From Leptospiraceae bacterium (GTDB lineage: Bacteria > Spirochaetota > Leptospiria > Leptospirales > Leptospiraceae): 64,000 nucleotides of DNA. The position numbers and the translations under genes are program-made. Shown in pieces: positions 42,090-59,800 of the stretch. The stretch is taken from assembly GCA_024233835.1 (NCBI GenBank), contig JACKPC010000001.1:1541442-1605441 (forward strand), in the 5' to 3' direction. Position 1 is the first letter of the stretch, and every line of letters begins with the position of its first letter. Below the pieces are notes generated by a model. The model did not search any database. It was not told the DNA's origin and saw only the letters and a list, made by a program, of their open reading frames with translations.

Positions 42090-43871
42090 TTATACTCCAA
42101 AAACGAGTTTGATTTCTTTTTCATATTCTTCTAAAGCATTCATATCTTCTGAAATGGTACGAATGGTTTTAAATTCGACTTCTTCGATTTTTCCATCAAT
42201 TTTCATGGCTTCGATCAGGTGTTTGATAATCGATGTTTTTTTTGCAGAAGGTGCCGTTTTGAATTTTTCCAATAAACCTTCCATTTCCCTTAAAAATAGT
42301 TCTGTATCATTTTTTTCTAATAGATCGGATATTCTATCCAGGAAGTATTTATTGTGCCCGAACTTTCTGCAGGAGGAATTTAAGAATTCACTCTCTTCTT
42401 TAGAAAAATCATCATCCGCAAAAGAAACAAATAAAGCACCGATTACCATCACAAGGTAGTATTCTCCTTCTTCCTTTTCATTTCCTTTAGAATTGAGAAG
42501 TCTCTCTTTGTTTAAAGCGTCTAAGGGAATTAACTTTGAAAGATTCTGGTTTATGGTATTTTTTTTATATTTTGCTTTTATATTTGTATCCGTAAAAAAC
42601 ATCCGCGTGTTATAAAAATATTCCAGGGCTTTGGCACGAAATACTTCTAAGGGATGAGTTCTCAAAACATCTGAAATTTCAAAATAGGAGCCGGTTTCCA
42701 ATAAGTTGTTTGCCTGGTTCAAATAGTCATCAATTACATAAGAACCAAATTTATCTACATTTCCGGCTGATAGTTTCATAATGGCCTGTACACTGGCCTG
42801 AAAGTTTTTACTGGCAAATAACCCCAGTCTATCCGCATTTAGCTCCTGGATCTGGCTGATTAACATTGAAAACTTTAAAAGTTCAAAGCCTTCTTCTGAT
42901 TGAATAATTCGTATTTCGTCTTCGCTGCGTTCACTTTCATATTGAGGATTAAACATGCGTAAAATGTAATTGTGTAAGAAACTCTGATTATGATTGAATA
43001 CATAGTGTCCGAACTCATGACCGATAATAGTCTTGATTTCATCTTCATCATCTACCAGGTTTAAAATATTATCGGCAAAGCCTAAAATAATCTCTTTCTT
43101 ATCTGAGATAATAAAGGCATTTTCTCCCATGCCTTCTTTGGTTTTAAAAACTTTTATATTGGCTTCTATTTCAAATAGATTTTTTACTTCTTCGATAATC
43201 GAAAAAAGTTTTTCATGGTTTTTTGCATTTAACTCTACCGAGGTTTTCAAGAAATGTTTTAGGGCTGAAGTATAGCCACTCTCTCCGTATTTACTCTGAG
43301 AGTTTTGTTTCAATTTATCTGCCAGTGGAAGTTTTTCCAACTCTGTTTTTAGTTTGTCCTCTTCTATAAGTTTTAGCTCCTGAAGTTTTTTACTACAGTC
43401 AGTACGGGAAAAGTTTTTAACTTTAGGGGGTTTTATATTCAGAGGAGAACTGATTTTTATTTCAACATTCAATTTCTCTTCTGTTTTTATGGCCGCGGAT
43501 GTAGCTATGTCACCCGGAGAACTTTCTCTTCCCGAAGAAAGCTCTTCTCTCGTGTACTGTTTGGGATTTTCTTGTGGAGTAATTTTTTCAAATCGATAGG
43601 GAAAAAGTTCTCTGAATTTTTTATAAGCAAACTCTTTACCTTTAAGCATCGCAGAATCCGGGTCACTTCCCATTACCCGGGTATATAAGCGCAGCATGGA
43701 ATAGCCAATACCGGAAAGGATAAGGAGAGTCAAAAACAATAGAGTGAAACCGGAAGCCTGTTTGCCTTTTTGTATTTCATCAATAGCAACACTGAAGAGG
43801 AGGAAGCTAAAGATTGCTATAACAACAGAAACCGCAATAAAAATGTATTTGAATAACTTTTTTAAAAACAT
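42090..43871 (-). CDS. M48-family zinc metallopeptidase with N-terminal TM and extra C-terminal domain
   Basis: HEXXH (IIGHEFGHYVFNH) with a downstream E. 593 aa. Confidence 0.7.
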   Translation of the reverse strand: MFLKKLFKYIFIAVSVVIAIFSFLLFSVAIDEIQKGKQASGFTLLFLTLLILSGIGYSMLRLYTRVMGSDPDSAMLKGKEFAYKKFRELFPYRFEKITPQENPKQYTREELSSGRESSPGDIATSAAIKTEEKLNVEIKISSPLNIKPPKVKNFSRTDCSKKLQELKLIEEDKLKTELEKLPLADKLKQNSQSKYGESGYTSALKHFLKTSVELNAKNHEKLFSIIEEVKNLFEIEANIKVFKTKEGMGENAFIISDKKEIILGFADNILNLVDDEDEIKTIIGHEFGHYVFNHNQSFLHNYILRMFNPQYESERSEDEIRIIQSEEGFELLKFSMLISQIQELNADRLGLFASKNFQASVQAIMKLSAGNVDKFGSYVIDDYLNQANNLLETGSYFEISDVLRTHPLEVFRAKALEYFYNTRMFFTDTNIKAKYKKNTINQNLSKLIPLDALNKERLLNSKGNEKEEGEYYLVMVIGALFVSFADDDFSKEESEFLNSSCRKFGHNKYFLDRISDLLEKNDTELFLREMEGLLEKFKTAPSAKKTSIIKHLIEAMKIDGKIEEVEFKTIRTISEDMNALEEYEKEIKLVFGV

Positions 43872-43907
43872 ATAGAACTCCTTTTTTAGATTATAAAATC
43901 AATATAA

Positions 43908-46900
43908 TTAAGCCACATCAGCATTTCCATTTATCGCATCGATTATTTTCACGACTTTTATAGCATCTTCCCTATTGGGAAAAACTCCGGATAGACCTCC
44001 ATCATTTATGTCGATGAAGGGAGACTCGTTTAGTACTCTTTTTTCTAATGTACCATTTTTTGCCAGATAGTTGATAATCGTTTTCACAAAAGTCATCTGA
44101 TCACCTCTCAGGTTTCCGGCCTGTAAAAATTCGGCAAAGGCCTGATTCAGGGCTTCTGTTTCCAAACCGGTGATACTGCGAATGAAAACTCCTAAAGGCC
44201 TTTCACCGTATTCCTGAACAAATTGCTCTTTACTTCCTGCTACATCATCTGTAAAAAGTATTCTTTCCAGAGCATTTATGTCGTGCTCTGTGATAGATTC
44301 ATTATGCCGGAGTTTATAGATTGTGATGTGGTCTTTGTTATTTCGAATATAGCTTTCTACCCTGTCTTTATAGGATTGCAGGCTGGTATAAATATCTAAG
44401 GGATATTTTTCATCTATTCTTGTTGTATCTAATTTGTCTTTAAAGTTTGTATAGATTGGTTCCTGCTTTTCCGGGTCCAAATATTTTATCAAACTTCGGA
44501 TGGATTTTCTAAGTTCTTCCAGACTGTGCACATGAGCCTTTTGCCAGTAAGCATCGGTTTGGACGGATTGAATAAGTTCTATTTGCTTTGCTATCTGGGG
44601 TATATTGGCTTTTTTTTCCAGCTCTTTTGCCAGTCCTGCGATTTTATTTGTGTATTGGCTGAGACTATTTGTTTCCAGTAAGTAAAGCATACTGCTATGT
44701 ACCAATACATCAAATCTTCTGGCTTTATCATCATCGCCTTTTTGCGGAGGTTCTAAATGGGAAAGATGTTCACTGATGATTGACAGGTCTAATTTGTTTA
44801 GGTTTAACCATTTTTCTTTATAGCTGTATTCTTTCACATATCTCCATTGCTTTTGCACGATAAAGCGATCCTCGTCCAGAGTCGATATGATGTGCTGTAG
44901 TTCCTTTGCATAAAGTTCCTTGATTTGCTTCTCTTCTTCCGTGGTTTCTGTCTTCTGGTTGATAATTACCAGGACTCTGGCTTTGGCCTCAAATATTTGT
45001 TGCTGTAACGATTTTACATTTTTGCTGATATAGCCTTCCGGCTTTGCTTCAAAAAATTCAAAGTTTTCACAATAATCGAAAATAAGAAATTCTTTCTTAT
45101 GAACACCCGGAGCAAATAAATCAGGACAGAGCCTTGTGCCCCTGCCTATCATCTGCCAGAACTTGGTGACGCTGCGTACCAGTTTGAAAAAGACCAGATT
45201 TACCACTCGCGGTGCATCTACACCGGTATCCATCATATCTACGGATACGGCGATTTGTGGATCTTTTTCACTGTGTTCATCACTAAATTTTTCTACGAGA
45301 TCTTCTGCTTTCTCTATGTAGTTGTCAATTACCTGTAAAAACTTGTTGCTGTATTCCGGATAGTTCTTTTCAAATCGTTTCTTGATGAACTCGGCATGGT
45401 TATGGTTTTTAGCAAAGATAATCGTCTTCCCGATTTTATCTCCACCCTCGACCTTTATCCCGTCTTTCATCAGATGTTCAAGAACTTTGTCTACCGTATC
45501 CTGATTGAATAACCAGTTATTTAATGCTTCGCTGCTAATGCTGTCCGGTGCTTCTTCGTTTGATGGGTCGCCGAACTTCTCTTCATATTCCTGTTTTTCT
45601 TTTTCGGATAGCTCGTGGTATTTAATGCCTTCTCTCTGGAATTTCAAGGGAACACTGTAGGCTTTGGCTGGCACCAAATATTTGTCTTTGACGGCTGCGT
45701 CTAATTCGTAGGCGAAGGTAGGGTTGTCATCTTCGATTTGGAAGAGGGAATAGGTATTTTTATCAAAGTCTTTTTTGGGTGTAGCAGTAAGTCCTAATAG
45801 TAAAGAATCAAAATATTCAAAGATGGCTTTATACTTCTGATAGACCGACCTGTGGGTTTCATCAATAATGATGAGATCAAAATGTCCTACTCCGAAATAA
45901 CGCTTATTGTCTATTCTCGTGTGGTCGATTTGATTCATCATCGTTGGATAAGTAGAAAAAACAAGTCTTGCTTCCAAATTGACCTTATCCCTGGTTAGAT
46001 CAATGGAAGACAATTCGGGTAAATGATTATTAAACGCTTTTTTCGCCTGGGTGACAAGGGCGTTTCTGTCAGCTAAGAATAAGACTCTTTTCACCCAATT
46101 GCATTTGAATAACATATCTACAATGGCGGCTGCCGTCCGGGTTTTGCCGCTTCCGGTCGCCATTACCAGCAGGGCTTCTCTTTTAAAGCCTTTGAGATTT
46201 CCCTTCCTGTCGCTTATCACATAGGCTTCGGCAACTCTTCGCAGGGCTTCTAACTGATAGGGTCTATTGATAATATTATGATTTACTGAAAAGTTTCGCA
46301 GGTCTTTTTTATCCAGACGTCTGTCTATGAGAAGTTGTAGTTCATCCTGTGTATAAAAGCCCTGGGTTTGTCTTTCGCTATAGAAAGTATCATCATAGAG
46401 ATAGGTTTCAAAACCATTGGTATAGAAGATAATCGGTCTCTGTCCGTGCATCTTTTCCAGACAGTCGGCATAGAGTTCAGCCTGATGTCTGCCGGATTCT
46501 GCATGTAGCATGGTTCGTTTGGCTTCGATGACAGCAAGAGGTTTGCCGTCCTTTCCCCAGAGAACATAGTCCGCATAGCCCGTGCCGGAAGGGTTTACGC
46601 TTTTAGGCAAGCCCGTTACTTTATATTCCAGATCCTTTCCCTTTTGCAAATGCTCCCAGCCTGCATCCCGAAGGAGGAGGTCGATAAAACGCTCGCGTGT
46701 TTCTTTTTCGGTTACAAGAACGGGAACCACCTGCATCGGGTCGGTTTCTTTGTTTCTTTCTTCTCTTCTGTCTGCGATTTCTTGTTTTAGTCTTTCTAAT
46801 TCCCTGCGTAAAGACTCATTTTCCCTTGCCTGCTCCTGTTGTTTTTTGCGCTCTTCGGCTTCTTTTGCCTGAAGTTGTTCTTTTTCCTGTTCTAAAGCTT

Positions 46901-47354
46901 TGAGCTTTTTGAGAGTTTCCTGTTCCTTCTTGCCATCGGGAATGTGGGAGAGAGAAAACGCGGGTGGCCTGGTTTTTTGCAGAGAGTAGCAAAAATGAAA
47001 AGCACCTAAGAATCGAAATAGGTTTTTGACAGAGACAATGGAATGTTCTTCGGTGATGCTACTGCCGTGGGCCGCGGAATTTCCATAACGGCGGATAAGT
47101 TCAATTTCCCGGGAGAGCCTGGCCGGGCGGATGATTTCTTGAAAATTGGCATCGAAAATAAGAGCGGAAAGATTGTCGGAATAGGGCCTGGTGAGTTTCT
47201 TGTCATGGTCATACATCCAGTTGACAGCCAGCTCCAGGGCACTACGGGCAAGAATGGCACTGGCTTTGGGCGAAAGGAGCGCAAGTCTTTCGGCTTCTTT
47301 TGCCTCAGCAAAAATTGTGGGCCAGGCGGATTGGAGAAAAACAAAGTTCGACAT
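43908..47354 (-). CDS. hsdR: Type I restriction enzyme R subunit HsdR (start chosen at MSNFVF…; ORF track extends to 47474)
   Basis: N-terminal MSNFVFLQSAW consensus and PD-(D/E)xK (…DYVLW…VIEAKRT). Helicase motif I MATGSGKT and motif II IIIDETHR. TGAnATG coupling to the hsdS stop. Confidence 0.85.
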   Translation of the reverse strand: MSNFVFLQSAWPTIFAEAKEAERLALLSPKASAILARSALELAVNWMYDHDKKLTRPYSDNLSALIFDANFQEIIRPARLSREIELIRRYGNSAAHGSSITEEHSIVSVKNLFRFLGAFHFCYSLQKTRPPAFSLSHIPDGKKEQETLKKLKALEQEKEQLQAKEAEERKKQQEQARENESLRRELERLKQEIADRREERNKETDPMQVVPVLVTEKETRERFIDLLLRDAGWEHLQKGKDLEYKVTGLPKSVNPSGTGYADYVLWGKDGKPLAVIEAKRTMLHAESGRHQAELYADCLEKMHGQRPIIFYTNGFETYLYDDTFYSERQTQGFYTQDELQLLIDRRLDKKDLRNFSVNHNIINRPYQLEALRRVAEAYVISDRKGNLKGFKREALLVMATGSGKTRTAAAIVDMLFKCNWVKRVLFLADRNALVTQAKKAFNNHLPELSSIDLTRDKVNLEARLVFSTYPTMMNQIDHTRIDNKRYFGVGHFDLIIIDETHRSVYQKYKAIFEYFDSLLLGLTATPKKDFDKNTYSLFQIEDDNPTFAYELDAAVKDKYLVPAKAYSVPLKFQREGIKYHELSEKEKQEYEEKFGDPSNEEAPDSISSEALNNWLFNQDTVDKVLEHLMKDGIKVEGGDKIGKTIIFAKNHNHAEFIKKRFEKNYPEYSNKFLQVIDNYIEKAEDLVEKFSDEHSEKDPQIAVSVDMMDTGVDAPRVVNLVFFKLVRSVTKFWQMIGRGTRLCPDLFAPGVHKKEFLIFDYCENFEFFEAKPEGYISKNVKSLQQQIFEAKARVLVIINQKTETTEEEKQIKELYAKELQHIISTLDEDRFIVQKQWRYVKEYSYKEKWLNLNKLDLSIISEHLSHLEPPQKGDDDKARRFDVLVHSSMLYLLETNSLSQYTNKIAGLAKELEKKANIPQIAKQIELIQSVQTDAYWQKAHVHSLEELRKSIRSLIKYLDPEKQEPIYTNFKDKLDTTRIDEKYPLDIYTSLQSYKDRVESYIRNNKDHITIYKLRHNESITEHDINALERILFTDDVAGSKEQFVQEYGERPLGVFIRSITGLETEALNQAFAEFLQAGNLRGDQMTFVKTIINYLAKNGTLEKRVLNESPFIDINDGGLSGVFPNREDAIKVVKIIDAINGNADVA

Positions 47355-47355
47355 A

Positions 47356-48513
47356 TCAGGTAAGTTCTCCTTTGAAGGCTTTTTGCAAGAGACAGTTAAA
47401 TAGATCATCGGCTTTTTGAAGGGAAGCCTCCGCATTTGCTTTCTGGGATTCAATTTCTTGAATCCGTTCCGCAAATTGGTTTTGAAGCTCGATGGGTGGG
47501 AGAGGGTAGTCCAAGTCTCTTAAAATTGCTAAGTTAATATTTTTTTGTGCAGATTCAGGTGCAGTTTCTTCGAGAATTTTTTGTAAAAATGACATCCAAA
47601 AATGAGCGTAAATATTATTAGTATTTTCATTTGGAATAAATCCAACAACACTATCAGGAAAACATGCATTAAAAGTTAATATTCCAGTTTTAGCAATATT
47701 AGCTGCAATAGTAATACATAAAGTTCCTGAAGGCCATTTTTTACTTTGTGCTAATCCTATATCTGAATAAGTCGAATCATAAGTTTTTACAAATATTCCA
47801 CTATTTGCTATATCTCCTGTCTGAATTAAGGGATGGGATCCTCCAAGTAGTTCAGGGGCATTTCTTGGTCTATGCTTTGATTTTCCTCTATCCAGTTTCC
47901 CCACTTCTGAAAACTTTACAACCTCCCAGCCTTTGGGGTTCACAACCGGGTCGCCGAACATGTCTAAGAATAGGCTCTGGGCCAGCTCGTCGTATTTGGT
48001 GAGAAGTGCTTTGGTCTTCTGCCGGAACTCATCCGCCGCATCCAGTATCGCCGCGATTTTCTTTTGTTCATCGAGGGGCGGCAGGGGGATTTTGATATCT
48101 TTCAAATATTTAAAATGTCGATTGTATCCAGTATCTGGAATATTTAATTGAGATAAAAAATAATAAATATATTTTGTGTAATTGTTTCTTTCTTTATCTT
48201 GTAATACCTTAACACCATCAGCACCCATAACAAATTTAAAATCTATATATTTGAAAATTCTTGTATGGTCTCCAAAAATTATATAAGGAGGTTCTGATTT
48301 TACTATTTTTTTTTCATCAGAAAGGTAACCTGCAATCTTATTTTTACCTTGATCAATAATAGGAATCTTTCCAGAACTTTCAAACTTTGATTTAGGTATT
48401 TTAAAATTGCCAGCAGAATTATCTTCTAAAACTTCTTCAAAATTTTTAATAACCCATGTTTTTGGTAGTTTACGTAATGTACTTAAATTCTGTACCAAAC
48501 TAAAATCTTTCAT
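47356..48513 (-). CDS. hsdS: Type I R-M specificity subunit HsdS (start moved to MKDFSL… with GGGAGG SD)
   Basis: Two TRDs separated and followed by conserved coiled-coil repeats (LPPLDEQKKIAAILD…, PLPPIELQNQFAERIQ…). The ORF-track N-terminus (MQCVSTGLQCVSTG) is just a REP element read through. Confidence 0.85.
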   Translation of the reverse strand: MKDFSLVQNLSTLRKLPKTWVIKNFEEVLEDNSAGNFKIPKSKFESSGKIPIIDQGKNKIAGYLSDEKKIVKSEPPYIIFGDHTRIFKYIDFKFVMGADGVKVLQDKERNNYTKYIYYFLSQLNIPDTGYNRHFKYLKDIKIPLPPLDEQKKIAAILDAADEFRQKTKALLTKYDELAQSLFLDMFGDPVVNPKGWEVVKFSEVGKLDRGKSKHRPRNAPELLGGSHPLIQTGDIANSGIFVKTYDSTYSDIGLAQSKKWPSGTLCITIAANIAKTGILTFNACFPDSVVGFIPNENTNNIYAHFWMSFLQKILEETAPESAQKNINLAILRDLDYPLPPIELQNQFAERIQEIESQKANAEASLQKADDLFNCLLQKAFKGELT

Positions 48514-48591
48514 TTCATACCTCCCGTTGTTTGAACAGGATTTTTGGATTTCCATCGTGGGTGGAATTGTGGTATTTGAATGGTTGGTTTT

Positions 48592-48647
48592 TCCGGTAGA
48601 TACGCATTGCAACCCGGTAGATACGCATTGCAATGCGTATCTACCGG
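48592..48647. repeat. REP-like element: direct duplication of CCGGTAGATACGCATTGCAA followed by its inverted copy, forming a ~36-bp perfect hairpin
   Basis: Seen directly. Located between hsdS and the RAYT gene. Confidence 0.65.
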
Positions 48648-48686: not shown

Positions 48687-49388
48687 CTATAATTCCTTTT
48701 TGTTTGTGTTTGCAGGATTATCCCGGATATACCGACGCACATTTTCCAGTTCCCGTTGGCTGCGGATAATGCGGTCATAAAACCGGGATTGCCATTGGAA
48801 ATTTGGGTTTATGGTTTCATGAATCCGTCGCGTGGATTTGGATTTAAACCCCCGGATGATATTGGATATATTTTGAATGTACATATATGAATAATGATGG
48901 ATGGTATCAATCCCCGTAGGGACGCATTGCAATGCGTCCCTACGGGACAATGCGTCCCTACGGGGCAATGAATCCCCACGGGGCAATGAATCCCCACGGG
49001 GCAATGAATCCCCACGGGGCAATGAATCCCTACGGGGCAATGAATCCCCACGGGGCAATGAATCCCCACGGGGCAATGAATCCCCACGGGGCAATGAATC
49101 CCCACGACGGGGGCGGGGATAATCAATTTGGATGATGCCGTGGATATGATCCGGCATGATGATAAATTCGTCCAGATATACATTGGGTCGCATGATAATG
49201 GTTCTGTACCATTCCTCGTGGATGATTTGTCCGATGGTGGATAATATCATTTGATGATTAAAAATATTACCCAAATAGGGTTCGCGGTTCTTCGTGCAAA
49301 TGGTGATAAAATAATACCCCGGATGGGAATAATCCCAATTTTTTAACCTTGCTGATTCGACGCGGTATTTATTATTGTATAAGGTCAT
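48687..49388 (-). CDS. REP-associated tyrosine transposase (RAYT, IS200/IS605-like Y1 HUH transposase) with internal repeat expansion
   Basis: HUH motif (MPDHIHGII). Catalytic Tyr motif (WQSRFYDRII) and C-terminal …YIRDNP. Between them an in-frame (RGDSLP)n insertion encoded by REP-derived 18-bp repeats. Confidence 0.75.
   Translation of the reverse strand: MTLYNNKYRVESARLKNWDYSHPGYYFITICTKNREPYLGNIFNHQMILSTIGQIIHEEWYRTIIMRPNVYLDEFIIMPDHIHGIIQIDYPRPRRGDSLPRGDSLPRGDSLPRGDSLPRRDSLPRGDSLPRGDSLPRGDSLPRRDALSRRDALQCVPTGIDTIHHYSYMYIQNISNIIRGFKSKSTRRIHETINPNFQWQSRFYDRIIRSQRELENVRRYIRDNPANTNKKEL
48911..49108. repeat. REP-like 35-bp hairpin (CCCCGTAGGGACGCATTGCAATGCGTCCCTACGGG) followed by 8 tandem 18-bp units (CAATGAATCCCCACGGGG)
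   Basis: Seen directly. Lies inside the RAYT ORF and keeps all six frames open across the region. Confidence 0.85.
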
Positions 49389-49416: not shown

Positions 49417-49872
49417 TTAGCCCTTTTTCTTTTTCAATTCCATTAGAATTTTAAGGTCCCATTTGTCCTGCTCTCTTTCTGTTTGCTTACTTTTAATTAA
49501 AGAATCCAGACCCAAATATGGAATTTCTAATTTATCTAATTCTAAAATACATACATCTTTCATTGCATCATCGTAAGTTAAAGACCAGGCACTGAGCAAA
49601 ATGTCTAACTCGGGTTCATCATATATTTTAATCACAATATTCTCTAAAAAGTCTTCAACTGTAACTTTTTCTAAATGAGGATATAATTCCTCGATACAGG
49701 AAATCACATTTTGAATGTTCTTTCTGTCGTTTTGAATTAACACGTCAATATCTTCTGTGGCGCGTACATACCCATGAAAAGAACAGGCTCTTGCACCCAC
49801 AATTACAAACTTAACATCATGCTTCTTTAGCAAAAAACAAACTCTTTGGATCTCATTCATAATGTTCCACAT
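49417..49872 (-). CDS. nucleotidyltransferase-fold protein (MNT-like), paralog of 50295-50837
   Basis: G-A…R-x-T-E-DIDVLI (GS/x…DxD) Pol-beta NTase-like motif. 151 aa. Confidence 0.5.
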   Translation of the reverse strand: MWNIMNEIQRVCFLLKKHDVKFVIVGARACSFHGYVRATEDIDVLIQNDRKNIQNVISCIEELYPHLEKVTVEDFLENIVIKIYDEPELDILLSAWSLTYDDAMKDVCILELDKLEIPYLGLDSLIKSKQTEREQDKWDLKILMELKKKKG

Positions 49873-50038
49873 ACCTTTTGAGAGAGAATAGGTAATGTTC
49901 CTCCCAGGTACGAAATTTAAAAATCTTTCCTTTCTTCTTTTGAATGGGAGAATTCTTTTTTAATTCAGCAATCAATTTTTCCTGAACTTCGAGATTCTCC
50001 AGGGCTGTTCTTTCTTTCTTATTGCCGATGATTTTCAT
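49853..50038 (-). CDS. small hypothetical protein (61 aa)
   Basis: ORF in a tight operon (20-nt overlap with the downstream gene). Confidence 0.3.
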   Translation of the reverse strand: MKIIGNKKERTALENLEVQEKLIAELKKNSPIQKKKGKIFKFRTWEEHYLFSLKRYVEHYE

Positions 50039-50050
50039 AAGTTTTCCATC

Positions 50051-50302
50051 TCACTTTTTCTCTAAGTTCCGAAGATGCTGGATGAACTTCTCTTTTTCTT
50101 CTTCAGAAAAATCATTACCGTAATACCTCAGAAAAAGACGGATTTTGATTTCTGTTTTGCTGAGCCCCGGTGGAAAAGAAGCCAATACAATTTTTCTTGC
50201 TGCTGTGCAACTGGCAAACCCCAGCTTCATCCTTTCTTCACCGGTAAGTTTCGCATAACGTTCTCTTAGCATCTGACGTATTTCGGGTGAGGTATCATCC
50301 AT
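50051..50302 (-). CDS. small hypothetical protein (83 aa)
   Basis: ORF. 8-nt overlap with the upstream NTase-like gene. Confidence 0.35.
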   Translation of the reverse strand: MDDTSPEIRQMLRERYAKLTGEERMKLGFASCTAARKIVLASFPPGLSKTEIKIRLFLRYYGNDFSEEEKEKFIQHLRNLEKK

Positions 50303-50837
50303 TTTCTAACTCCTGTAAAAGTTCATAAACTCCGAGTTCTTTACTATATTCATTCACATAGGCTTTATCAAAATTAGAAGAGAGAAGGTTTATTAAGTCC
50401 CGTTTTTGCATTTCGGATTGAGATTTTTTCATCCAATCTAATTTGGAAAGTATTAAGTCTTCCTTACTAACCATAAACGTTTCAAAATCTTCTATTACTA
50501 CTTTAACCCTTCTTTCAAACTCTAATCGTCTATAAGCTGTTTTTTTACGCAGGATGAAGTCTATTTTGATAATACTTTCATTGTGAATGATATTGAACAT
50601 TTTATTATTCTCAATAGCCAATTTGATAGCATCAGGATCAATATAATATACTTCAGAAAAAATTTTCTCAAGTATAGTAATATCTTCCTGCTGTAAATAA
50701 ACTACTATATCAATATCTCTGGTCATTCTCGGTTCAATATAAAAGTTCATTGCCATAGAGCCTGTAACCATAAATGGAATTTGATTCTCTATAAGTTTGT
50801 TAGAAACATCTTTTAATATTTTAATATCATCACTCAT
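50295..50837 (-). CDS. nucleotidyltransferase-fold protein (MNT-like), paralog of 49417-49872
   Basis: GSMAMNFYIEPRMTRDIDIVV motif. Shared C-terminal …Q-x-ER/KRD…DL…L segment with the 151-aa paralog. Confidence 0.5.
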   Translation of the reverse strand: MSDDIKILKDVSNKLIENQIPFMVTGSMAMNFYIEPRMTRDIDIVVYLQQEDITILEKIFSEVYYIDPDAIKLAIENNKMFNIIHNESIIKIDFILRKKTAYRRLEFERRVKVVIEDFETFMVSKEDLILSKLDWMKKSQSEMQKRDLINLLSSNFDKAYVNEYSKELGVYELLQELENG

Positions 50838-50849
50838 TCTCTAAGTTCC

Positions 50850-52328
50850 TCACTTCAAAAGCTTTTTCAAGACCTTCAATGTCTCATTTCGTTCTTTATC
50901 AAAGGCTTCGATTTCAGCAATGATTTCGGATGGTGGAGCATAGCTTTCTTCCTCGTATTCAACTTCTCTGTAGCGATTAATTGATAGGTCCCAGCCATTG
51001 GCCTCGTTTATTTCTTTTTTGGGAACTAAGAAACTCTTATCTGTCCGTTTACGTTTCTTCTCCTTAGGTAAATTAGAAAAACGTTGTATAATATCCGGAA
51101 TGTCATTATCTTTAATAGGATTACGCTTATCGTCCAAACTGTAACCATCCGCCTGCATATCATAAAACCAGATATTTTCTGTACCTCCGGTCCCGGTTTT
51201 GGTAAAATAGAGAATAGCTGTACTTACACCGGCATAGGGTTTAAACACGCCACTCGGCATAGAAATCACCGCATCGAGTTTTTGATTTTCCACAAGCTCT
51301 TTACGGATTTGCTTATGTGCTGTGGAACTTCCGAAAAGAACACCATCCGGTACTATCACAGAAGCTCTTCCACCCACTTTTAACATACGTAAAATCAATC
51401 CTAAGAATAATAACTCAGTTTTTTTAGATTTAACAATCGTTAAAATGGAGCCTTCAATTCCATCATAGTCCACACTGCCCTTGAAAGGAGGATTGGCCAG
51501 AATCAAAGTAAATTTGTCTCTATACTGTTTTGCATTTTCACTGAGTGAGTCCATTTTTTTTAGATCGGGATTTTCTATTCCGTGCAGGACCATATTCATC
51601 GCACCAATGCGAATCATGGTATCATCAAACTCAAGGCCATGAAACATGGTATCACTAAAATGCTTTCTAAACTTTTTATCATGAAACCAATCTTTATGAT
51701 TGTCCCGAAAATATTCACCGGCATTTACTAAGAATCCGGAGGTACCGGCTGCCGGGTCACAAATGATGTCCTCTCTTTTTGGTTCTACGATATCTACCAT
51801 CAGACGGATAATATGGCGTGGAGTGCGGAACTGTCCGTTTCTTCCGGCAGAAGCAATTTTGGAAAGCATATACTCATACAAATCACCCTTGGTATCCCGG
51901 TCTTTCATGTCGATTTTATCGATGAGTTGCACGACCTGATCCAGAAGTCTCGGAGTTGAAATGACAAAGGTTGCCCGTCCCATAAATTCGGCAAATGCTC
52001 CACCGGATTTACCCACCTGTTTCATGTGCTCAAAAACGGAAAGATTATCTACAGAGGATTTTGTGAAAAGTTCAAACATGGCTTCCGGGTCTTTATTTTT
52101 AAATGAATGCCAGCGAAGATTTTTTTGCTTGCTGGAGAATATTTTTACTTCCCGTGGAATGCCTAAGAGAACAGAATTTTCTTCATCGGCTAATTGGATT
52201 TCATCAATTCTGCGTAGAAAAAGGAGGTAGGTAAACTGCTCAATGACAGTTAAAGCATTGGTGATACCTCCCCAGGCAAAAGCCTCCCAGATTCTATCAA
52301 CTTGTGATTTTAATTCCCCTGTAATCAT
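50850..52328 (-). CDS. hsdM: Type I R-M N6-adenine methyltransferase HsdM
   Basis: N-terminal HsdM_N (…ELKSQVDRIWEAFAWGGITNALTVIEQFTYLLFLRR). Motif I DPAAGTSGFL. Motif IV NPPF. Confidence 0.9.
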   Translation of the reverse strand: MITGELKSQVDRIWEAFAWGGITNALTVIEQFTYLLFLRRIDEIQLADEENSVLLGIPREVKIFSSKQKNLRWHSFKNKDPEAMFELFTKSSVDNLSVFEHMKQVGKSGGAFAEFMGRATFVISTPRLLDQVVQLIDKIDMKDRDTKGDLYEYMLSKIASAGRNGQFRTPRHIIRLMVDIVEPKREDIICDPAAGTSGFLVNAGEYFRDNHKDWFHDKKFRKHFSDTMFHGLEFDDTMIRIGAMNMVLHGIENPDLKKMDSLSENAKQYRDKFTLILANPPFKGSVDYDGIEGSILTIVKSKKTELLFLGLILRMLKVGGRASVIVPDGVLFGSSTAHKQIRKELVENQKLDAVISMPSGVFKPYAGVSTAILYFTKTGTGGTENIWFYDMQADGYSLDDKRNPIKDNDIPDIIQRFSNLPKEKKRKRTDKSFLVPKKEINEANGWDLSINRYREVEYEEESYAPPSEIIAEIEAFDKERNETLKVLKKLLK

Positions 52329-53456: not shown

Positions 53457-53897
53457 ATGAAACGAATACTTTGTAAAATACTCATCACGTTTGGTCTGTT
53501 CCTAATCGGAACAGAAATTTTAGCCGGAGAACATAAGCTGACAATTCCGGCTTTGGGACTTGATACTTTTGCAGCTTATTCCATGCAGGAAAACTCTCTT
53601 GAGATGGAAGAAATCGGATTGAAGTTTCTCATGGAAATAGATACTTTCCGAATTTTATCTATTGGTCGGGATAAGATTCAAAAGAAGAGTGAATTCCATT
53701 TGAAAGGTTTATTTATATTCGGTTTAAATTCTTCTTCAAAACAAAAATATAAGCTTCTTTCCAAAGAGAATATGGATTCCTTTGAAATAGTTAGAAGCAC
53801 TGGAAATCTTTTGCTTTTTAAGCAGCCTCTTTATTTTCAAGTAAGAGAAATACGGCATATTTATCTTCAGATTCGTAATAAAGGAGAATCTGTATGA
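53457..53897 (+). CDS. hypothetical secreted protein (146 aa)
   Basis: Signal peptide. ATGA overlap with the giant gene start. Confidence 0.4.
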   Translation: MKRILCKILITFGLFLIGTEILAGEHKLTIPALGLDTFAAYSMQENSLEMEEIGLKFLMEIDTFRILSIGRDKIQKKSEFHLKGLFIFGLNSSSKQKYKLLSKENMDSFEIVRSTGNLLLFKQPLYFQVREIRHIYLQIRNKGESV

Positions 53898-56800
53898 AGT
53901 ATTTAGTTTATATTATATATTTATTCTGGAATATTGGAATGTTCGCTTATGACTTACCCGGACTTAGATATACCAAACCGGATATTATAAATGAAGTAAA
54001 GCCTCATATCGAAAGAGCGAATCTGGAAGAGAATGAAGTAGCCTGGAAAGAAAGTATGGAGACAGCAAAAACAAAACTATTTGAAAACTGGAATCAGGAC
54101 CTGGAAGGGGAAATTCAACAGATACTTTCCTCTATTCCTTCAACCGAAACCGGGATGGAAACAGAAATTTATACTTCGGAAATACTTAACTTTTTAAAAA
54201 TTCAAAAAGAAGCTTTATTGAAGCAATGGAACTCAGAAATGGAACAGTATATACTCGGGGAATTTTCTAACTTTTTAAATCTTCACACCGGAGGGGAAGA
54301 AGAAAAGGGAGAATCCTATGACCAGGAAGTTCTATCGATTGATGATTCTATAGCAAAAGAAATGCAGCCGGATACAGTTACGGAAGAATATTATCTAGGA
54401 AAAGATTACTGGGAAAAAAATGCAGCAGAACTTCTGGAAAGAAGAAAGAAATGGGAAGACGAATCTTTACAAACCATACAAAAAGGTATGGAGGAGTGGA
54501 ATCGACTGATAGGGGATTTGGAAACTGAAAAAGAAAAACAGGAAACCGGAATCGAAGAAAGGATTAATTATTGGAAGAATTATAAACTAAATTTGGAACT
54601 CTTACTTAAGAAGAATCGAGAAGACTTACAGGCCTATCTGGTAAATACAAGAAGTGAGATGAATCAGATGTTATCTACCGTTGATACAAATGAGGCTATA
54701 GTAGACAAGGAAGCCTTTAAGCAGTCTATCGGAAATTATTTGCAATTACAGGAAAGTCTGAATACAGCCTTAGCTTCCGGTGCTTCTCTGGAAGAGCTAT
54801 CTTTGCAAATATCAAAATATTACGATACAAAGAAATTAGAAGCTTCGAATAAAGCTGAATACTGGAAGGCTGAGAAAAGCATCACCGGAAAGATACATGA
54901 AGAAACGGTAAATTTTAATACAGATTTGGGTTATAGTAAAATCTATTGCGAAACGCTTCGAAGAGAAGGATTTGAAGATGCCTGTCCTTTCGGAACAGTT
55001 GATTCTCCCACATATAAGGCTATGAGCATGACAGAAGATGGAACCATGCTTGGCTGGCATATGGATGCTTCCACAAAAGAACTGTATTTAGGAACGAGAT
55101 ATTATTACAATACAGACTCTTATAAAATACCTATATACGGGTATTATACAGAAGTTAATAATGGTTTCTCGGAAGAGATTCACGGGCCTGTATATGATGT
55201 CAGGTTTGATAATACCGGGTTTGATATGATAAAGTATCAGGAAAATATTAGAATATTAGGTATTATAAGAAAAACGGGAACTCAGGATCTCAGTCGTTTT
55301 CTGAATGGAAATATCAGGATAGACTCACAGTCCAGCCAACTAAAAGCTAAGGATCCGGGCAGTGGAGAGTGGAGATATTTTACCGAAGCAGGAACTCATT
55401 CTTCCGAATTCAAGTATTATGGAGAAAAGATAACTATGGACTGGCAGATTCCTGTTTCGACTGCAAATGTCCGAAATGATCTAATTATAGAAACCAATTA
55501 TTCTTATACAGATAGGAATGCAGAGGCGAATGAAACATTCTGGAATAATTTGTCGCAAAAGTATTCTTCCTATGCTGAGAACTTTCGCAACCTTTCTATA
55601 GCTTTAAGCGGTATAGAAAAGAAAGTTAGTGATTTCTTGAATATTTATGATTCCAGTCTGGAAAGTCTTACAAACTATAAAGCTGAAATTGCAGAGAGCA
55701 TGAACAAAGAGATTGCCGCTCAGGTGAAGGAAAGAGATATTTGGATTGAAGAAGTATATGGCTATACACTTGATGATTTTACAAATTCAGTCGGAGAAAA
55801 TGTAAATTCTGAATACAGACTGGGGCAAAAAGAATGGGAGGATGCCTTCCGAGCCTATAGAAGAAGAGAATTGACATGGTTGGAAGAAGCTGCAAAAGAA
55901 TTGGATAAGAAAGTCTACGGGCCGAATGAGAGTGAAACAAGTCTTTTAAGTAAAATTGAAACTTCTACAAAAAGCATGAAAGAAGATATTCTGGAATCTG
56001 AAGAAAGAGTGGAAGATCTAAAGCAGTATGCTGAAACACAGAGGGATTCTTTTTACTTTAAAAGTGCAAAGGAGCTAATTGAAGAAGCTGAACTTTTAAA
56101 AGAACAGGAACTTATAAGTAATCAAAAAGCCATGCACTTATCCGAAGAGGCTCTAAATTCAAGTATAAGGGCAGAAAACTATCTTCTTGCAGAGAAGGAT
56201 TCTTTGGTTCTTGCTTCATTGATTAAATCCGAATTTGGAGAAGAAGCTTCTGTTGTAGAGCCGGATATTGAGAGGTTTCAAACCGAACAAGTTTATTGGA
56301 AAAATGAAATAGAAGGAGCGGATGGAGGTTTTGCTTATAAAAAGCGTATTCGATTAGCAGAACTGGAATTACCTGTGCTAAAGCAGAACTCTCTGGATTT
56401 ACAAAAAGCGGAGAACTTACAGGCTCAGATGATTGAAAAAGAAAAGAAATCTTTTCTTGCCCTGAATGAGAAATATAAAAAGGCTGAATCCTATTATAGC
56501 TCCTACGAAAGTGAAAAAGCAAACGCTGAGCTGGAAAATGCTGAGTATTATTATCATTTAAGTATTCGAACCCGGGAAGAAGCCAGGGAGAGTTTTTATA
56601 AGGAATATAAAGAAAATCTTAAAGATGCAGAAACATCATTTAATGAAAGTAAATTGATATATTCCTATAGTGCTATGGAGAATTATCTCAAAAGAAAAAA
56701 ATCTTTATTAGAATATGATTATGCTATATTAATCGCTCAAGTAAAAGAAGATGCTTTCAAACAGGAATCTGATTTAAACTCAGAAATTAAAGACATTCTA

Positions 56801-59800
56801 TCGAAAAGCCGCATAAACAGAACAAGGCAACAAGAGAATTTACAGGATCTCGGAGCCTTATTGGAGCTTGCTAAAAGGCTTTCGACTTCGAGTATTCCTG
56901 AAATCATGAACTGGAAAGAAGAAGCTTTACAGCTAAGCTATAAAGGTCCTATGAATCTGAATCCCAAACGATTGGATGTTTCCAATCTTTCTTACCTGGA
57001 AGCGGAATATCGGAAGGGTATCTTACACTATAATGAACTGGAAAAGCATTCCTTTCTAACAGAAGAAGAAGTGCAGTCCATTAATAGCCTGTTTGCAGGT
57101 ATGAGTGAAAGCTTAAATAGTGCCGGTAATGAGTCGATTCGAAACTACACAAACTCAATTATGGAAAAGTTAATTAGCAAAGCTAAGAATCTTGGTTCCG
57201 GTTTGCAGGATAAACTGATTAAGGAGCTAAACTCGGATGTAAAGTATAAATATTTGCGGGATAAAGGATACGAGTTTCAAAAAGTATCCTCAGATATAAT
57301 TCGGATAGGGAAAAACATAAAAAATGGGGAGCTCAATGCCTATGGTTATGCCATGGAAGAAAATACCTATGGACCGCAGTATACCTATTTACAGTTTACG
57401 ATTCAGACCGAATACAGAGTCCCGGCTTTTTCTCTTGGGAATGCAGATTCTATATTTCGGGAAGAATTTAAAGCTCTTGAATTGCAGGGGAGCTTAGAAA
57501 GTATTCAAGAATATTATAATTCAGTGGAATCCGAAATCGCTCTTTTCTTTGATAAGGCTAAAGAAATTGAAGACGCCTATAAAGCTGAGGAATTGAATAT
57601 ACAAACTCTTGAAGATAACTACATTTCATTAAAAGATAGCTATGTAGAGAACTATCAGGGTCTTGAACCAGCTTATCGCACATCCTATGACGCAAGTATC
57701 TCTGACTTCAAGAAGAGCATGGAGAGCATGGAATATACTTTTTCCGGAAAACAGGGAAAACGTGTATTGAAGGGGAAAGCGAATGTGCCAACTCCTATCG
57801 GGGTCTTGCCTATGGATATAGTTTACGGAGAGCAGACTCTGGAATTACCTTCTGATTTTACATTAGCTGATTTAAAACGTTCTTATGAGTTAAGCGGTCA
57901 GGGGAGTTCGTATGTAGCGAACACGATTCAGGAATCCAATGACGATTTTTCAAAATACCTTAGAGAAAAGATAAACGCTTTACAGAAAGTTTATGAAGCG
58001 AATGAAAGAGACAAAGAAGAAAAAGGTTTTCTTTTTGATGTGCTGAGCGGAGCTGCCGGAAGTTCCGGGAGTGTGAAAAAGGCGATTCAAACTTCCTTGA
58101 AGAATGAAGTTCAGTCGAGAGTATCGGCTCAGATAGCAAAAGATTCCGGACTTCCCACCGAATTTGTCTCAGCTTTAATGGGAGGAAAGAAACCTCAGGA
58201 AGCAGCCAGGTCTTATGTTGAATCGAAGGCTAAAACTGAACTGGCAAAAGCTTTGAATCTTCCACCGGAATTGATGATGAGCTACCTGGAAAAGAACGGT
58301 GTGGTTAAGAAAAAAGATCCACTGCGTCAATATACAAATGCCGGTAGTGCTTTACTTGTAAGCGGTGCTGCCGGTCTTGTATTGGGGCCTTCTGCCGCTT
58401 TACTTCCCCTTGCAGTAGAGGTTTTAAATAGTACTGCTTCGAAAAGCTTAGGGAAAAATAACCCCTTAACTAAGGGCGTAAATTCCTATTCAAATTTTAT
58501 GGATAGAACAGTAAGAAATGATGTAAGTGATTTCTTATATAAGAACGATCAAATAATTGATACAACTGTAACAGTAGGGGCTCACGTAACTACTGCTATG
58601 GCCTATGGAACCGCAGCCGTGGGGACGGCTTTTGCCTGGACGGGTGTGGGAGCAGGGATTGCCGCCGGAGGAGTAAGTCTGGGGATGGCAGTAAGTTCAG
58701 GTTACGCGGCCTATAAGGCTGCTCGTGGAGCTGTATTTGGTGGAACAAAGGGAGCTCTGGCCGGTGTACTTACAGCCGGTGCTACTGTTAGCCAGGTTGT
58801 TGGTGTTACTTATGATGTTTCCTATACTTATGACGGAGGTTTTGCGGGAGGTTTAGGACTCAGTCTTCCGGGAACCGGAAGCTTCCTTAGTGCCGGAGTT
58901 CGATTTGGAGAGGGAAGGAAAGCTTCCTATAGATTGGGAGCTGAATACGGAGGACTGAATCTGGGTCTAAATATGGATGGACAGCAAATCCAGTCCGCCT
59001 CTTTATCTTATGGAACAAGAGTTAGTGATGTAAAAATGAATCTGGGCTATAATTGGTCAGCTACGAATGGAAATGGACTGGGATTGAGTCTTGGGAATGA
59101 AAACGTCAAGATAGGTATAGATCACAGCGAATATGGTGGCACTGATTTTTCTCTGGATGGAAGCTTGAAGCTGAACCCTTTATTAACTACAAATGCGGGT
59201 ATAAGCTGGAATACTAAGGGAAAATGGGGTGTTGATGCGTCTATTGAATATAAGGAACAGAGAAAGCGAGGGGAATACTCTGACATATTATCTAACGGAG
59301 AATTCGGTATTCACTATGATGGTAGAAATATAAGTGCTAATTTAGATCTTGCCGGTACCAACGCATTTCGATATGAAAATGGTACTGTAATCGGAAATAC
59401 AAATTTTGCCCAGGAATTTGGTAACGCTTATTTTAAGAAACGTACTCTTGAACAGATGGAAGTGGAAAGAGAAATAAAAGAAGAGGAAGAAAGAAGGCAG
59501 GAAGAAGAACGCAGGAAAGAGTCCAGACGTAATTTCTTGAATTCCCTGGGGATTGTTGAAGAGAAAGATGAAGATGAAACCGATACAGAAGAAGATAAAC
59601 TGGAAGAAGAAAAGCGTACTCTGTCTATTGTGTATATAAAAACTACTACAGAAGAAGCGGAAGATTATATTCAGGATCTGGAAAAGAGCGGGAAGTATAC
59701 GGCTGAAGAAATAGCTGATCTAAAGAACTCATTAAAAACAGCACAGAAAAGTTGGTCGGACAAAGATAAGAGAACTGAGATGTTAGAAGCCACTAAAAAC

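Follow-up and report, generated by a model that had tools for sequence, protein, structure and literature searches.

Two MenT1-like nucleotidyltransferase and small-partner gene pairs, putative toxin-antitoxin modules, in a type I restriction-modification operon of a Leptospiraceae bacterium

What is encoded by the four short, closely packed open reading frames (ORFs) that separate hsdM from hsdS in the type I restriction-modification (R-M) operon of a Leptospiraceae metagenome-assembled genome, and do they form one system or several? A preliminary description of the window, the stretch of 64,000 nucleotides that was analysed, had read these ORFs, all on the minus strand, as a four-gene cassette in which two paralogous minimal nucleotidyltransferases (NTases) are joined by two small partners. 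We favour a different arrangement, namely two independent bicistronic toxin-antitoxin (TA) modules of the MenAT/AbiE (DUF1814 NTase) kind, lying back to back inside the R-M operon, a reading to which we assign a probability of about 0.68. Module 1 would consist of N180 followed by S83 (toxin first) and module 2 of S61 followed by N147 (antitoxin first). The features are as follows.

43908..47474, minus strand: hsdR, restriction subunit with an N-terminal DUF4145 (Pfam ResIII, EcoEI_R_C, HSDR_N and DUF4145)
47356..48633, minus strand: hsdS, specificity subunit (Pfam Methylase_S, 1.9e-31)
48687..49388, minus strand: REP-associated Y1 (IS200-like) transposase-like ORF (Pfam Y1_Tnp and NCBIfam REP_Tyr_transpos, in two stretches)
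49417..49860, minus strand: N147, a 147-aa divergent MenT1-like NTase, putative toxin of module 2
49417..49872, minus strand: longer form of N147 from the ATG at 49872, 151 aa
49853..50038, minus strand: S61, a 61-aa basic small partner, putative antitoxin of module 2
50051..50302, minus strand: S83, an 83-aa small partner, distantly like MenA1 (Rv0078B), putative antitoxin of module 1
50295..50837, minus strand: N180, a 180-aa MenT1-like (DUF1814/AbiEii superfamily) NTase, putative toxin of module 1
50850..52328, minus strand: hsdM, type I R-M methylase (Pfam N6_Mtase, 2e-64, and HsdM_N)

The R-M operon has hsdM, hsdS and hsdR on one strand, each recognisable by its Pfam domains, and the four ORFs lie within it exactly where they had been placed. 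The start codon of N180 is 12 nt from the end of hsdM, N180 and S83 overlap by 8 nt (ATGGATGA), and 12 nt separate S83 from S61. This 8-nt overlap had been reported before, as had one of 20 nt between the 61-aa and 151-aa ORFs; the latter holds only for the first ATG of N147 (49872), whereas the ATG at 49860, which is preferred by gene callers and by the family alignment and yields 147 aa, gives an overlap of 8 nt. Six contigs of nearly identical sequence, recovered from different samples, preserve the four-gene arrangement, and none of the four is a chance ORF, since all are conserved at the protein level across phyla. A promoter and terminator scan of the locus revealed nothing clearly above shuffled background (promoter-like matches fell within ~2 sd of the shuffled expectation), and detected neither a separate promoter or operator for the modules nor a terminator-like site within them on the minus strand.

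Both larger proteins carry the NTase-type motifs that had been noticed in them. Motifs I/II of DUF1814 proteins follow the pattern hG[G/S]x9-15DhD with an Arg within motif II (PMC3985639), and both proteins have the motifs described by Dy et al., down to the Arg that precedes the first Asp by four residues. Motif III is an essential Lys set in a hydrophobic helix. In N180, motifs I/II read V-T-G26-S27-x13-D41-I-D43 with R37 inside motif II (G26-S27...R37-M-T39-R-D41-I-D43), and G26, S27, R37, T39, D41, D43, D93, K132 and D147 are kept in 79-80 of 80 homologues; K132, the motif III Lys (L-S-K-L-x-W), and T39, a candidate phospho-acceptor that lies two positions ahead of the first catalytic Asp, are kept in all 80. 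N147 carries V-G22-A23-x13-D37-I-D39 with R33 (G-A...R-A-T-E-D-I-D; G-A or G-G across the family), and these residues are kept in at least 76 of 78 homologues. Its candidate phospho-acceptor T35 is found in 76 of the 78 and its motif III residue K125 (L-I-x-S-K) in 77, a profile alignment pairing K125 with the Lys of MenT1. Motif IV (+DxxD; D192 in AbiEii, D152 in MenT1) is kept only in part, each protein having one invariant Asp, D147 in the R-D-x-x-N of N180, 15 residues past the Lys as in MenT1, and D135 in the Q-D-x-x-D of N147. The functional residues of MenT1, T39 (the Thr that becomes auto-phosphorylated), D41, K137 and D152 (PMC10435456, PMC11375011), correspond to T39, D41, K132 and D147 of N180, with identical K-to-D spacing, and to T35, D37, K125 and D135 of N147, and are essentially invariant in the 80 and 78 homologues, respectively.

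Profile and structure comparisons point to the same relative, and the solved MenT toxins are the closest folds to both NTases. N180 passes Pfam AbiEii (PF08843) at 24.4 bits (gathering cut-off 22.5), a family matched at E<=0.01 by all 33 members of its own family, 30 of which also match DUF6036, and it bears the NCBI name AbiEii/AbiGii toxin family protein. MenT1 (8an4) is the first PDB match of the N180 family profile (E 4.5e-6), and the AF2 model of N180 (pLDDT 92) has the MenT1 structures 8an5, 8an4 and 8rr5 as its best Foldseek matches (E 1e-8, TM 0.66-0.69). This family, that of the 180-aa/83-aa pair, comprises more than 7,600 clusters at 90% identity. For N147, MenT1 is likewise the first PDB match of the family profile and the top structural match of a high-confidence AF2 model. 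The Pfam signal of the window protein is near threshold for DUF6036 (matched by 8 of 30 family members) and absent for PF08843, which is matched by 4 of 30 relatives. Several N147 relatives are labelled "acylphosphatase" by JGI.

The two NTases are related to each other, as had been proposed, but distantly: they share 25% identity over 63 aa, hhalign gives a probability of 94% (E 1.3e-7), and the profile-profile alignment places K132 opposite K125 and D147 opposite D135, in support of the C-terminal segment said to be common to both. They come from two separate, widespread families and so are not recent paralogues. Both are small members of the DUF1814 superfamily.

Could these proteins instead be small-molecule NTases, modifying an antibiotic or metabolite as LnuA or ANT(2'')-Ia do, with the small ORFs as accessory or regulatory genes? 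We consider this unlikely. The structural similarity to such enzymes is real but lower-ranked, MenT1 coming first by both sequence profile and fold for each NTase, and every match to Aminoglyc_resit is below threshold (14.1 bits against a Pfam cut-off of 21 for N180; 11 of 33 N180 relatives and 5 of 30 N147 relatives). Furthermore, the MenT-type R-x-T-x-D-x-D with its phospho-acceptor Thr is invariant, and an NTase gene so strictly tied to a very small, overlapping ORF, and scattered as a single copy over housekeeping contexts, is typical of TA modules, not of resistance genes.

The small ORFs had been taken for partners of the NTases, and their conservation bears this out. The NTase is immediately followed by an S83-type ORF in 79 of 80 genome loci from many phyla, the one remaining locus being cut at its end. 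A word-index search with the 83-aa protein gave only 16 matches; an exhaustive profile search revealed the true size of the family, 1137 clusters at 50% identity. Its members are 67-100 aa long and have no significant Pfam domain, and the window protein itself matches nothing in Pfam or NCBIfam, including PF18993 (Rv0078B-related antitoxin) at E<=1. Even so, PF18993 is the only family that S83 members match repeatedly, all below threshold: 8 of 35 do so at 13.8-17.2 bits and one member, P0336, reaches 23.1 bits (E 7.4e-5; cut-off 27.1), whereas neither the S83 profile nor P0336 retrieved the MenA1 chain from the PDB. S83 fits the description of a short protein free of a DNA-binding domain and genetically coupled to a MenT-like gene. 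In 77 of 80 metagenome loci, and also in L015-L022, the NTase is immediately preceded by an S61-type ORF, with the conserved core (R/K)GxxFKxxTW. S61 is unrelated to S83 when the two are compared directly, and its family has no match in Pfam or the PDB; among 36 members scanned, none matches PF18993 and no family is matched by more than one member. S61 thus represents a small-partner family without a description in any database.

The closest characterised system is MenAT1 of Mycobacterium tuberculosis, in which a DUF1814 NTase toxin of about 190 aa (MenT1, Rv0078A) is paired with a 68-aa helical antitoxin without a DNA-binding domain (MenA1, Rv0078B). Both window NTases have MenT1, a tRNA-modifying toxin, as their best match in sequence profile and in structure; N180 repeats the P-R-x-T-R-D-x-D-I-V-V segment of MenT1 almost exactly, with even the numbers of T39 and D41 the same. 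The weak but repeated matches of S83 relatives to the Rv0078B family extend the likeness to the antitoxin. There are also differences, and sequence identity is only 16-20%. Whereas menA1 is upstream of the toxin gene in 15 of 21 cases (PMC10435456), S83 is downstream in all 79 loci and has an extra conserved N-terminal segment of ~17 aa (M-x-D-T-x-P-E); S61, though upstream of its NTase, is unrelated to MenA1, and N147 is shorter than MenT1 by about 45 aa. AbiE (AbiEi/AbiEii) and MenAT3/MenAT4 (COG5340-DUF1814) share the NTase superfamily, motifs I-III and the bicistronic layout, and the Lys K189 and Ser S78 of MenT3 are the equivalents of K137 and T39 of MenT1. Their toxins, however, reach about 290 aa and possess an additional C-terminal lobe, and their antitoxins are winged-helix proteins of ~200 aa (COG5340), of which there are none at the window locus. 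AbiE works in abortive-infection defence, and the toxins of this group are neutralised via a conserved active-site Ser/Thr (PMC3985639, PMC7450476, bioRxiv 10.64898/2026.01.19.700257). Minimal NTases of the DUF6036 and TM1012 type resemble the window proteins in size and fold, TM1012 being the second-best structural match, but are not known to have a partner or a function; the literature searched makes no mention of DUF6036.

A minimal NTase beside a small protein also recalls the type VII HEPN-MNT systems, which are common in defence islands. There the roles are reversed: the minimal NTase acts as the antitoxin of a HEPN RNase that carries an Rx4-6H motif. By this analogy, N180 and N147 would nucleotidylate, and so silence, small toxic partners, and the NTase of module 1 is indeed encoded first, the usual antitoxin position. 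We regard this as quite unlikely. The two NTases match AbiEii and DUF6036, with no Pfam match to the MNT families NTP_transf_2 and Polbeta; their fold is MenT-like, and they most resemble a toxin, MenT1, whose regulatory Thr they retain. The partners, 60-83 aa and hydrophilic, have no HEPN domain and no enzyme-like Pfam match. The preliminary description had seen no obvious Rx4-6H motif in them; this stands as far as a HEPN domain is concerned, but S61 does contain a literal R-x4-H (RTWEEH), which is not a HEPN motif because its His is not conserved in the family, and no conserved His exists in the S83 family. The conclusion that these are not standard MNT/HEPN pairs, and the view that they look like NTase-based TA modules, are therefore well founded.

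The extent to which the locus is undescribed differs among its parts. Given that N180 passes Pfam AbiEii and carries an NCBI name, and that MenT1 and MenA1 are similar, the modules are of a known kind, the MenT/AbiEii NTase TA; what has not been described before is the S61 family. NCBIfam models match none of the four proteins. PADLOC returned nothing for them beyond very weak cyclase and AbiEii matches (no AbiEii match for N180, and E 0.0067 for N147), so the locus is not a catalogued defence system. A search of IMG/VR phages gave no relatives of either NTase, and relatives on plasmids are only ~30% identical and annotated as hypothetical proteins.

Does the position between hsdM and hsdS have a meaning of its own? 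There is a precedent for an hsd operon that houses a toxin acting on tRNA: prrC, whose product, the anticodon nuclease PrrC, is tied to EcoprrI. By analogy, the toxins could be wired to the type I R-M enzyme and set free once a phage anti-restriction protein has disabled the R-M complex. The place of the modules 12 nt after hsdM, with no intervening terminator-like site on that strand, would suit such wiring, to which we nevertheless give little credence. In the 160 other loci of the two families (80 N180/S83 genome loci and 80 N147/S61 metagenome loci), no hsdM, hsdS or hsdR homologue is found within 3-4 kb, which also disposes of the hsd operon as a recurrent setting, and both toxins are already served by a dedicated small partner of their own. 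A REP-type transposase gene is part of the same insertion, suggesting an accidental landing in a permissive site. On the favoured reading, the position is a lineage-specific insertion, together with that transposase, without functional coupling.

The same loci decide whether the four genes belong together. Excluding near-identical copies of the locus, the N180/S83 and N147/S61 pairs are adjacent in only 1 of the 160, each NTase otherwise travelling with its own small partner only; the N147/S61 module is missing from 79 of the 80 N180/S83 loci, and the N180/S83 module is present in none of the 80 N147/S61 loci. The gaps or overlaps between NTase and partner are mostly of a few nucleotides across loci, and the pairs occur in unrelated neighbourhoods, such as the pheS-pheT interval or sites next to ETF or rfb genes. 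A single functional unit, a defence system of two NTases and two adaptors with interdependent parts, is thus very unlikely, since its tight packing (8-nt overlap, 12-nt gap, 8-nt overlap), its integrity in the six contigs and the presence of an N147-like pair beside an N180/S83 pair in one distant locus (L065) are outweighed by the occurrence of each pair alone, in housekeeping neighbourhoods, and by the swapped pair order in L065.

Taking the locus as two MenAT/AbiE-like modules, we propose that each NTase probably blocks the 3' ends of tRNA and that its small partner neutralises it. Homology with MenT1, MenT3 and AbiEii suggests that the block would prevent aminoacylation and stop growth; toxicity and the putative tRNA substrate are drawn from MenT1 at an identity of about 17-20%, and nucleotide specificity, the matching of partner to toxin and phospho-regulation are also inferred. 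The translationally coupled partner is predicted to bind its own toxin. It would cover the NTase active site, or drive the conserved Thr (T39 of N180, T35 of N147) towards the gamma-phosphate and thereby bring about auto-phosphorylation of the toxin, or do both. MenA1 induces auto-phosphorylation of MenT1, a toxin for which an antitoxin of 68 aa is enough (PMC10435456), and the same is induced in MenT3 and AbiEii by unrelated antitoxins (PMC11375011; bioRxiv 10.64898/2026.01.19.700257). Toxicity may depend on the host, since MenT1 itself is non-toxic in E. coli (PMC10435456).

More tentatively, S61/N147 could be an unannotated MenT-like branch in which S61 (RGFVFKxxTW) is a structurally new antitoxin that neutralises its toxin unlike MenA1 or AbiEi, and N180/S83 a toxin-first, MenA1-derived system; jointly, they would show antitoxin-triggered auto-phosphorylation to be common among minimal NTases well outside mycobacteria and streptococci. 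The MenT/AbiEii class of toxins has been worked out only recently: extension of the tRNA 3' end stops translation, and antitoxin-induced auto-phosphorylation switches the toxin off. If our reading is true, a minimal toxin the size of MenT1 is abundant in environmental phyla, among them Verrucomicrobiota, Acidobacteriota, Leptospiraceae, Nitrospirota and Chlamydiota, and at least two further families of small antitoxins, one without a described relative, accompany these toxins. The modules would offer compact test cases, with partners of 60-80 residues, of how a peptide-sized protein triggers auto-phosphorylation of an NTase, and would suggest a function for many "hypothetical" or mis-named ORFs of 60-180 aa.

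The window locus itself is ordinary, TA modules inserted in a type I R-M operon. Two minor observations concern its other genes. The Y1 transposase-like ORF is broken in frame by an 18-nt tandem array (48929-49106), and the real start of hsdS is probably downstream of the listed TTG, the gene being called as 385 aa in the identical contig L002.

The four genes that the preliminary description presented as one cassette are two independent bicistronic modules that are neighbours by chance in this species: N180/S83, a nucleotidyltransferase (NTase) with a small downstream partner, and S61/N147, a small upstream partner with its NTase. All four ORFs are present as first described and lie on the minus strand, amid restriction-modification (R-M) genes:

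50850-52328, minus strand: hsdM, its 3' end 12 nt ahead of N180
50295-50837, minus strand: N180, 180 aa
50051-50302, minus strand: S83, 83 aa
49853-50038, minus strand: S61, 61 aa
49417-49872, minus strand: 151-aa ORF; 147 aa (N147) from ATG 49860
48687-49388, minus strand: REP-type Y1 transposase-like ORF, 28 nt past N147
47356-48633, minus strand: hsdS (long ORF)
43908-47474, minus strand: hsdR, with an N-terminal DUF4145 domain
within 42090-47474, minus strand (as hsdR): 593-aa M48-family peptidase gene, downstream of hsdR

As described, N180 and S83 share 8 nt (ATGGATGA), and a 12-nt spacer separates S83 from S61. The 20-nt overlap reported between S61 and the last ORF holds for the first ATG and becomes 8 nt from ATG 49860, the start used by gene callers on identical contigs and with which the family alignment concurs. 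Metagenome contig L002 is 100% identical to the window, and the Leptospiraceae MAG L001 (GCA_020440905.1) 99.8%.

By scanning genomes with the N180 alignment, we collected 80 loci from Verrucomicrobiota, Acidobacteriota, Leptospiraceae, Nitrospirota, Ignavibacteria, Bacteroidota, Parachlamydiaceae, Fibrobacter, proteobacteria and others. In 79 of them the NTase is immediately followed, on its own strand, by an S83-type ORF, and the last locus is truncated; the longest S83-type ORF most often overlaps the NTase stop by 8, 13 or 4 nt. Scanning metagenomes with the N147 alignment gave a further 80 loci, 77 of which carry an S61-type ORF immediately 5' of the NTase (two of the remaining three are edge-cut) and none of which carries an N180/S83 pair. 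Both module types are adjacent at just one of the 160 loci, L065, and there in the opposite order. Elsewhere the pairs are found singly in unrelated neighbourhoods: between pheS and pheT, by ETF genes, after rfbC and before zwf. Since the pairs travel alone and adjoin at 1/160 loci, the cassette is not a unit. At L065:638-2502, a distant N147-like pair (79-aa ORF and 164-aa NTase, 4-nt overlap) sits directly upstream of the N180/S83 pair. In several metagenome and MAG contigs (L011-L014), the N180/S83 pair falls precisely between pheS and pheT, with the NTase start 4 nt past pheS, an unusual site for a toxin-antitoxin (TA) module.

The two NTases had been called paralogous, yet they share 25% identity across 63 residues and are not recent paralogues. 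An alignment of the two family profiles spans 139 columns (hhalign probability 94%, E 1.3e-7), which places the NTases as distant members of one superfamily. N180 matches Pfam AbiEii (PF08843) above threshold (24.4 bits, cut-off 22.5) and also hits DUF6036, whose threshold N147 just misses (22.7 bits, cut-off 23.6). The N180 family is very large: clustering at 90% identity gives over 7,600 clusters, almost without exception about 180 aa long; a word-index search gave about 100 clusters for N147. The best PDB match to both family profiles is the Mycobacterium tuberculosis toxin MenT1 (Rv0078A, 8AN4; E 4.5e-6 for N180, 0.0054 for N147), which is also the top structural match to both confident AF2 models (pLDDT 92.0 for N180, 92.8 for N147; N180 versus MenT1, Foldseek E 1e-8, TM 0.66-0.69). 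Relatives of N147 carry the name "hypothetical" or, curiously, "acylphosphatase". The latter label, which JGI gives to the NTase-fold proteins P0124, P0131, P0139 and P0144, looks like propagated mis-annotation, because just 2 of 30 family members match Pfam Acylphosphatase, and weakly.

The functional residues of MenT1 are T39 (the auto-phosphorylation site), D41, K137 and D152 (PMC10435456, PMC11375011). Dy et al. (PMC3985639) characterise the DUF1814 motifs as hG[G/S]x15DhD, which has an Arg inside it, a Lys in motif III and +DxxD as motif IV. N180 reads T-G26-S27...P-R37-M-T39-R-D41-I-D43-I-V-V, the latter part nearly identical to the P-R-F-T-R-D-V-D-I-V-V of MenT1, followed by D93, K132 and D147; the last two stand 15 residues apart, as do the Lys and Asp of MenT1. 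N147 has G22-A, R33, T35, D37, D39, D81/E84/D86, K125, R129, D132 and D135. Motif IV is canonical only in part in both. Among homologues drawn from the fetched loci (80 for N180, 78 for N147), each listed position is kept in at least 76 sequences, and therefore both enzymes look active.

S83 belongs to a family of 1137 clusters at 50% identity (exhaustive profile search, E<=1e-3), nearly all stand-alone proteins of 65-100 aa, with the conserved core M-x-D-T-x-P-E...E-R-x-x-M-G...A-R...L-A-S-x-P...L-F-x-R-x-Y-G. No Pfam match exceeds threshold. The sole Pfam family recurring among its members (8/35) is PF18993 ("Rv0078B-related antitoxin"); Rv0078B is MenA1, which pairs with MenT1 as its antitoxin. 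These matches score 13.8-17.2 bits and, for member P0336, 23.1 bits (E 7.4e-5; cut-off 27.1). The register is consistent in the three members with matched residues shown (S83 ~17-65 versus profile 1-52), and the same scan of 36 S61-family proteins returned neither PF18993 nor any recurrent family. The window's own S83 did not match PF18993 in the Pfam scan, and the S83 profile did not retrieve the MenA1 chain from the PDB. Distant homology of S83 to MenA1 is thus probable but unproven. A single relative, P0310 (322 aa), starts with an S83-family domain, to which a Polbeta-type NTase and then a HEPN domain are joined. It may be a genuine fusion that connects adaptors of the S83 type with MNT-HEPN systems, or the product of a gene call that ran on.

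S61 is unrelated to S83. Searches of Pfam and the PDB gave no match for the S61 family, whose core is P-x-(R/K)-(P)-R-G-F-V-F-K-x-x-T-W-x-x-Y-x-x-W. That neither partner has an obvious HEPN motif needs qualifying: S61 contains a literal R-x4-H (RTWEEH), but this is not kept across its family, so S61 is not a HEPN protein.

We therefore retain the proposal of putative NTase-based TA systems distinct from MNT/HEPN pairs, and regard the modules as MenAT-like, one toxin-first with a MenA1-like partner and the other with an undescribed small partner family. "Undescribed" applies to S61; NCBI already labels the N180 cluster "nucleotidyl transferase AbiEii/AbiGii toxin family protein". By homology to MenT1, MenT3 and AbiEii, each NTase would probably add nucleotides at tRNA 3'-CCA ends, blocking aminoacylation (PMC7450476, PMC10435456) and translation, and its small partner would probably neutralise it by covering the active site and/or inducing auto-phosphorylation of the conserved Thr (PMC11375011; bioRxiv 10.64898/2026.01.19.700257). 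MenA1 is a documented case in which one helix-sized partner is enough, and the unrelated antitoxins MenA3 and AbiEi are documented to give the same outcome. The N180/S83 module is toxin-first, unlike menAT1; other DUF1814-superfamily NTases are encoded upstream of predicted regulators (PMC11375011). Judged by modelled fold alone, a small-molecule NTase role may also be compatible, because LnuA and ANT(2'')-Ia are near neighbours in structure; they follow MenT1 among the matches, as do TM1012 (unknown function) and a fungal NTase-like protein.

PrrC-like functional coupling of these MenAT-like modules to the R-M enzyme is conceivable, given their place amid hsdM, hsdS and hsdR, but unlikely, because no hsd gene lies near any of the 160 other loci of the two families. 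The hsd surroundings first noted are thus real here and lineage-specific. The short gaps on either side, and the lack of any minus-strand terminator-like site across the modules, suggest read-through with the R-M genes; a promoter scan was uninformative. A search of IMG/VR viral contigs retrieved neither NTase family, and plasmid relatives are distant and annotated hypothetical.

The Y1 (IS200-like) ORF consists of two Pfam-matching halves separated by an in-frame 18-nt tandem array (48929-49106; 9.9 copies of GCAATGAATCCCCACGGG, coding GDSLPR repeats). This array is polymorphic in copy number, since that of L001 is 90 nt (5 units) shorter. At its 5' end, the long hsdS ORF holds a perfect 21-nt direct repeat (48593-48633; two copies of CCGGTAGATACGCATTGCAAC, encoding 'MQCVSTGLQCVSTG'); the real start probably lies further downstream, because hsdS is called at 385 aa in an identical contig. 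The M48-family peptidase gene may belong to the R-M operon as an accessory gene, and a single plus-strand ORF of 2293 aa (53894-60775) lies a few kb past that operon.
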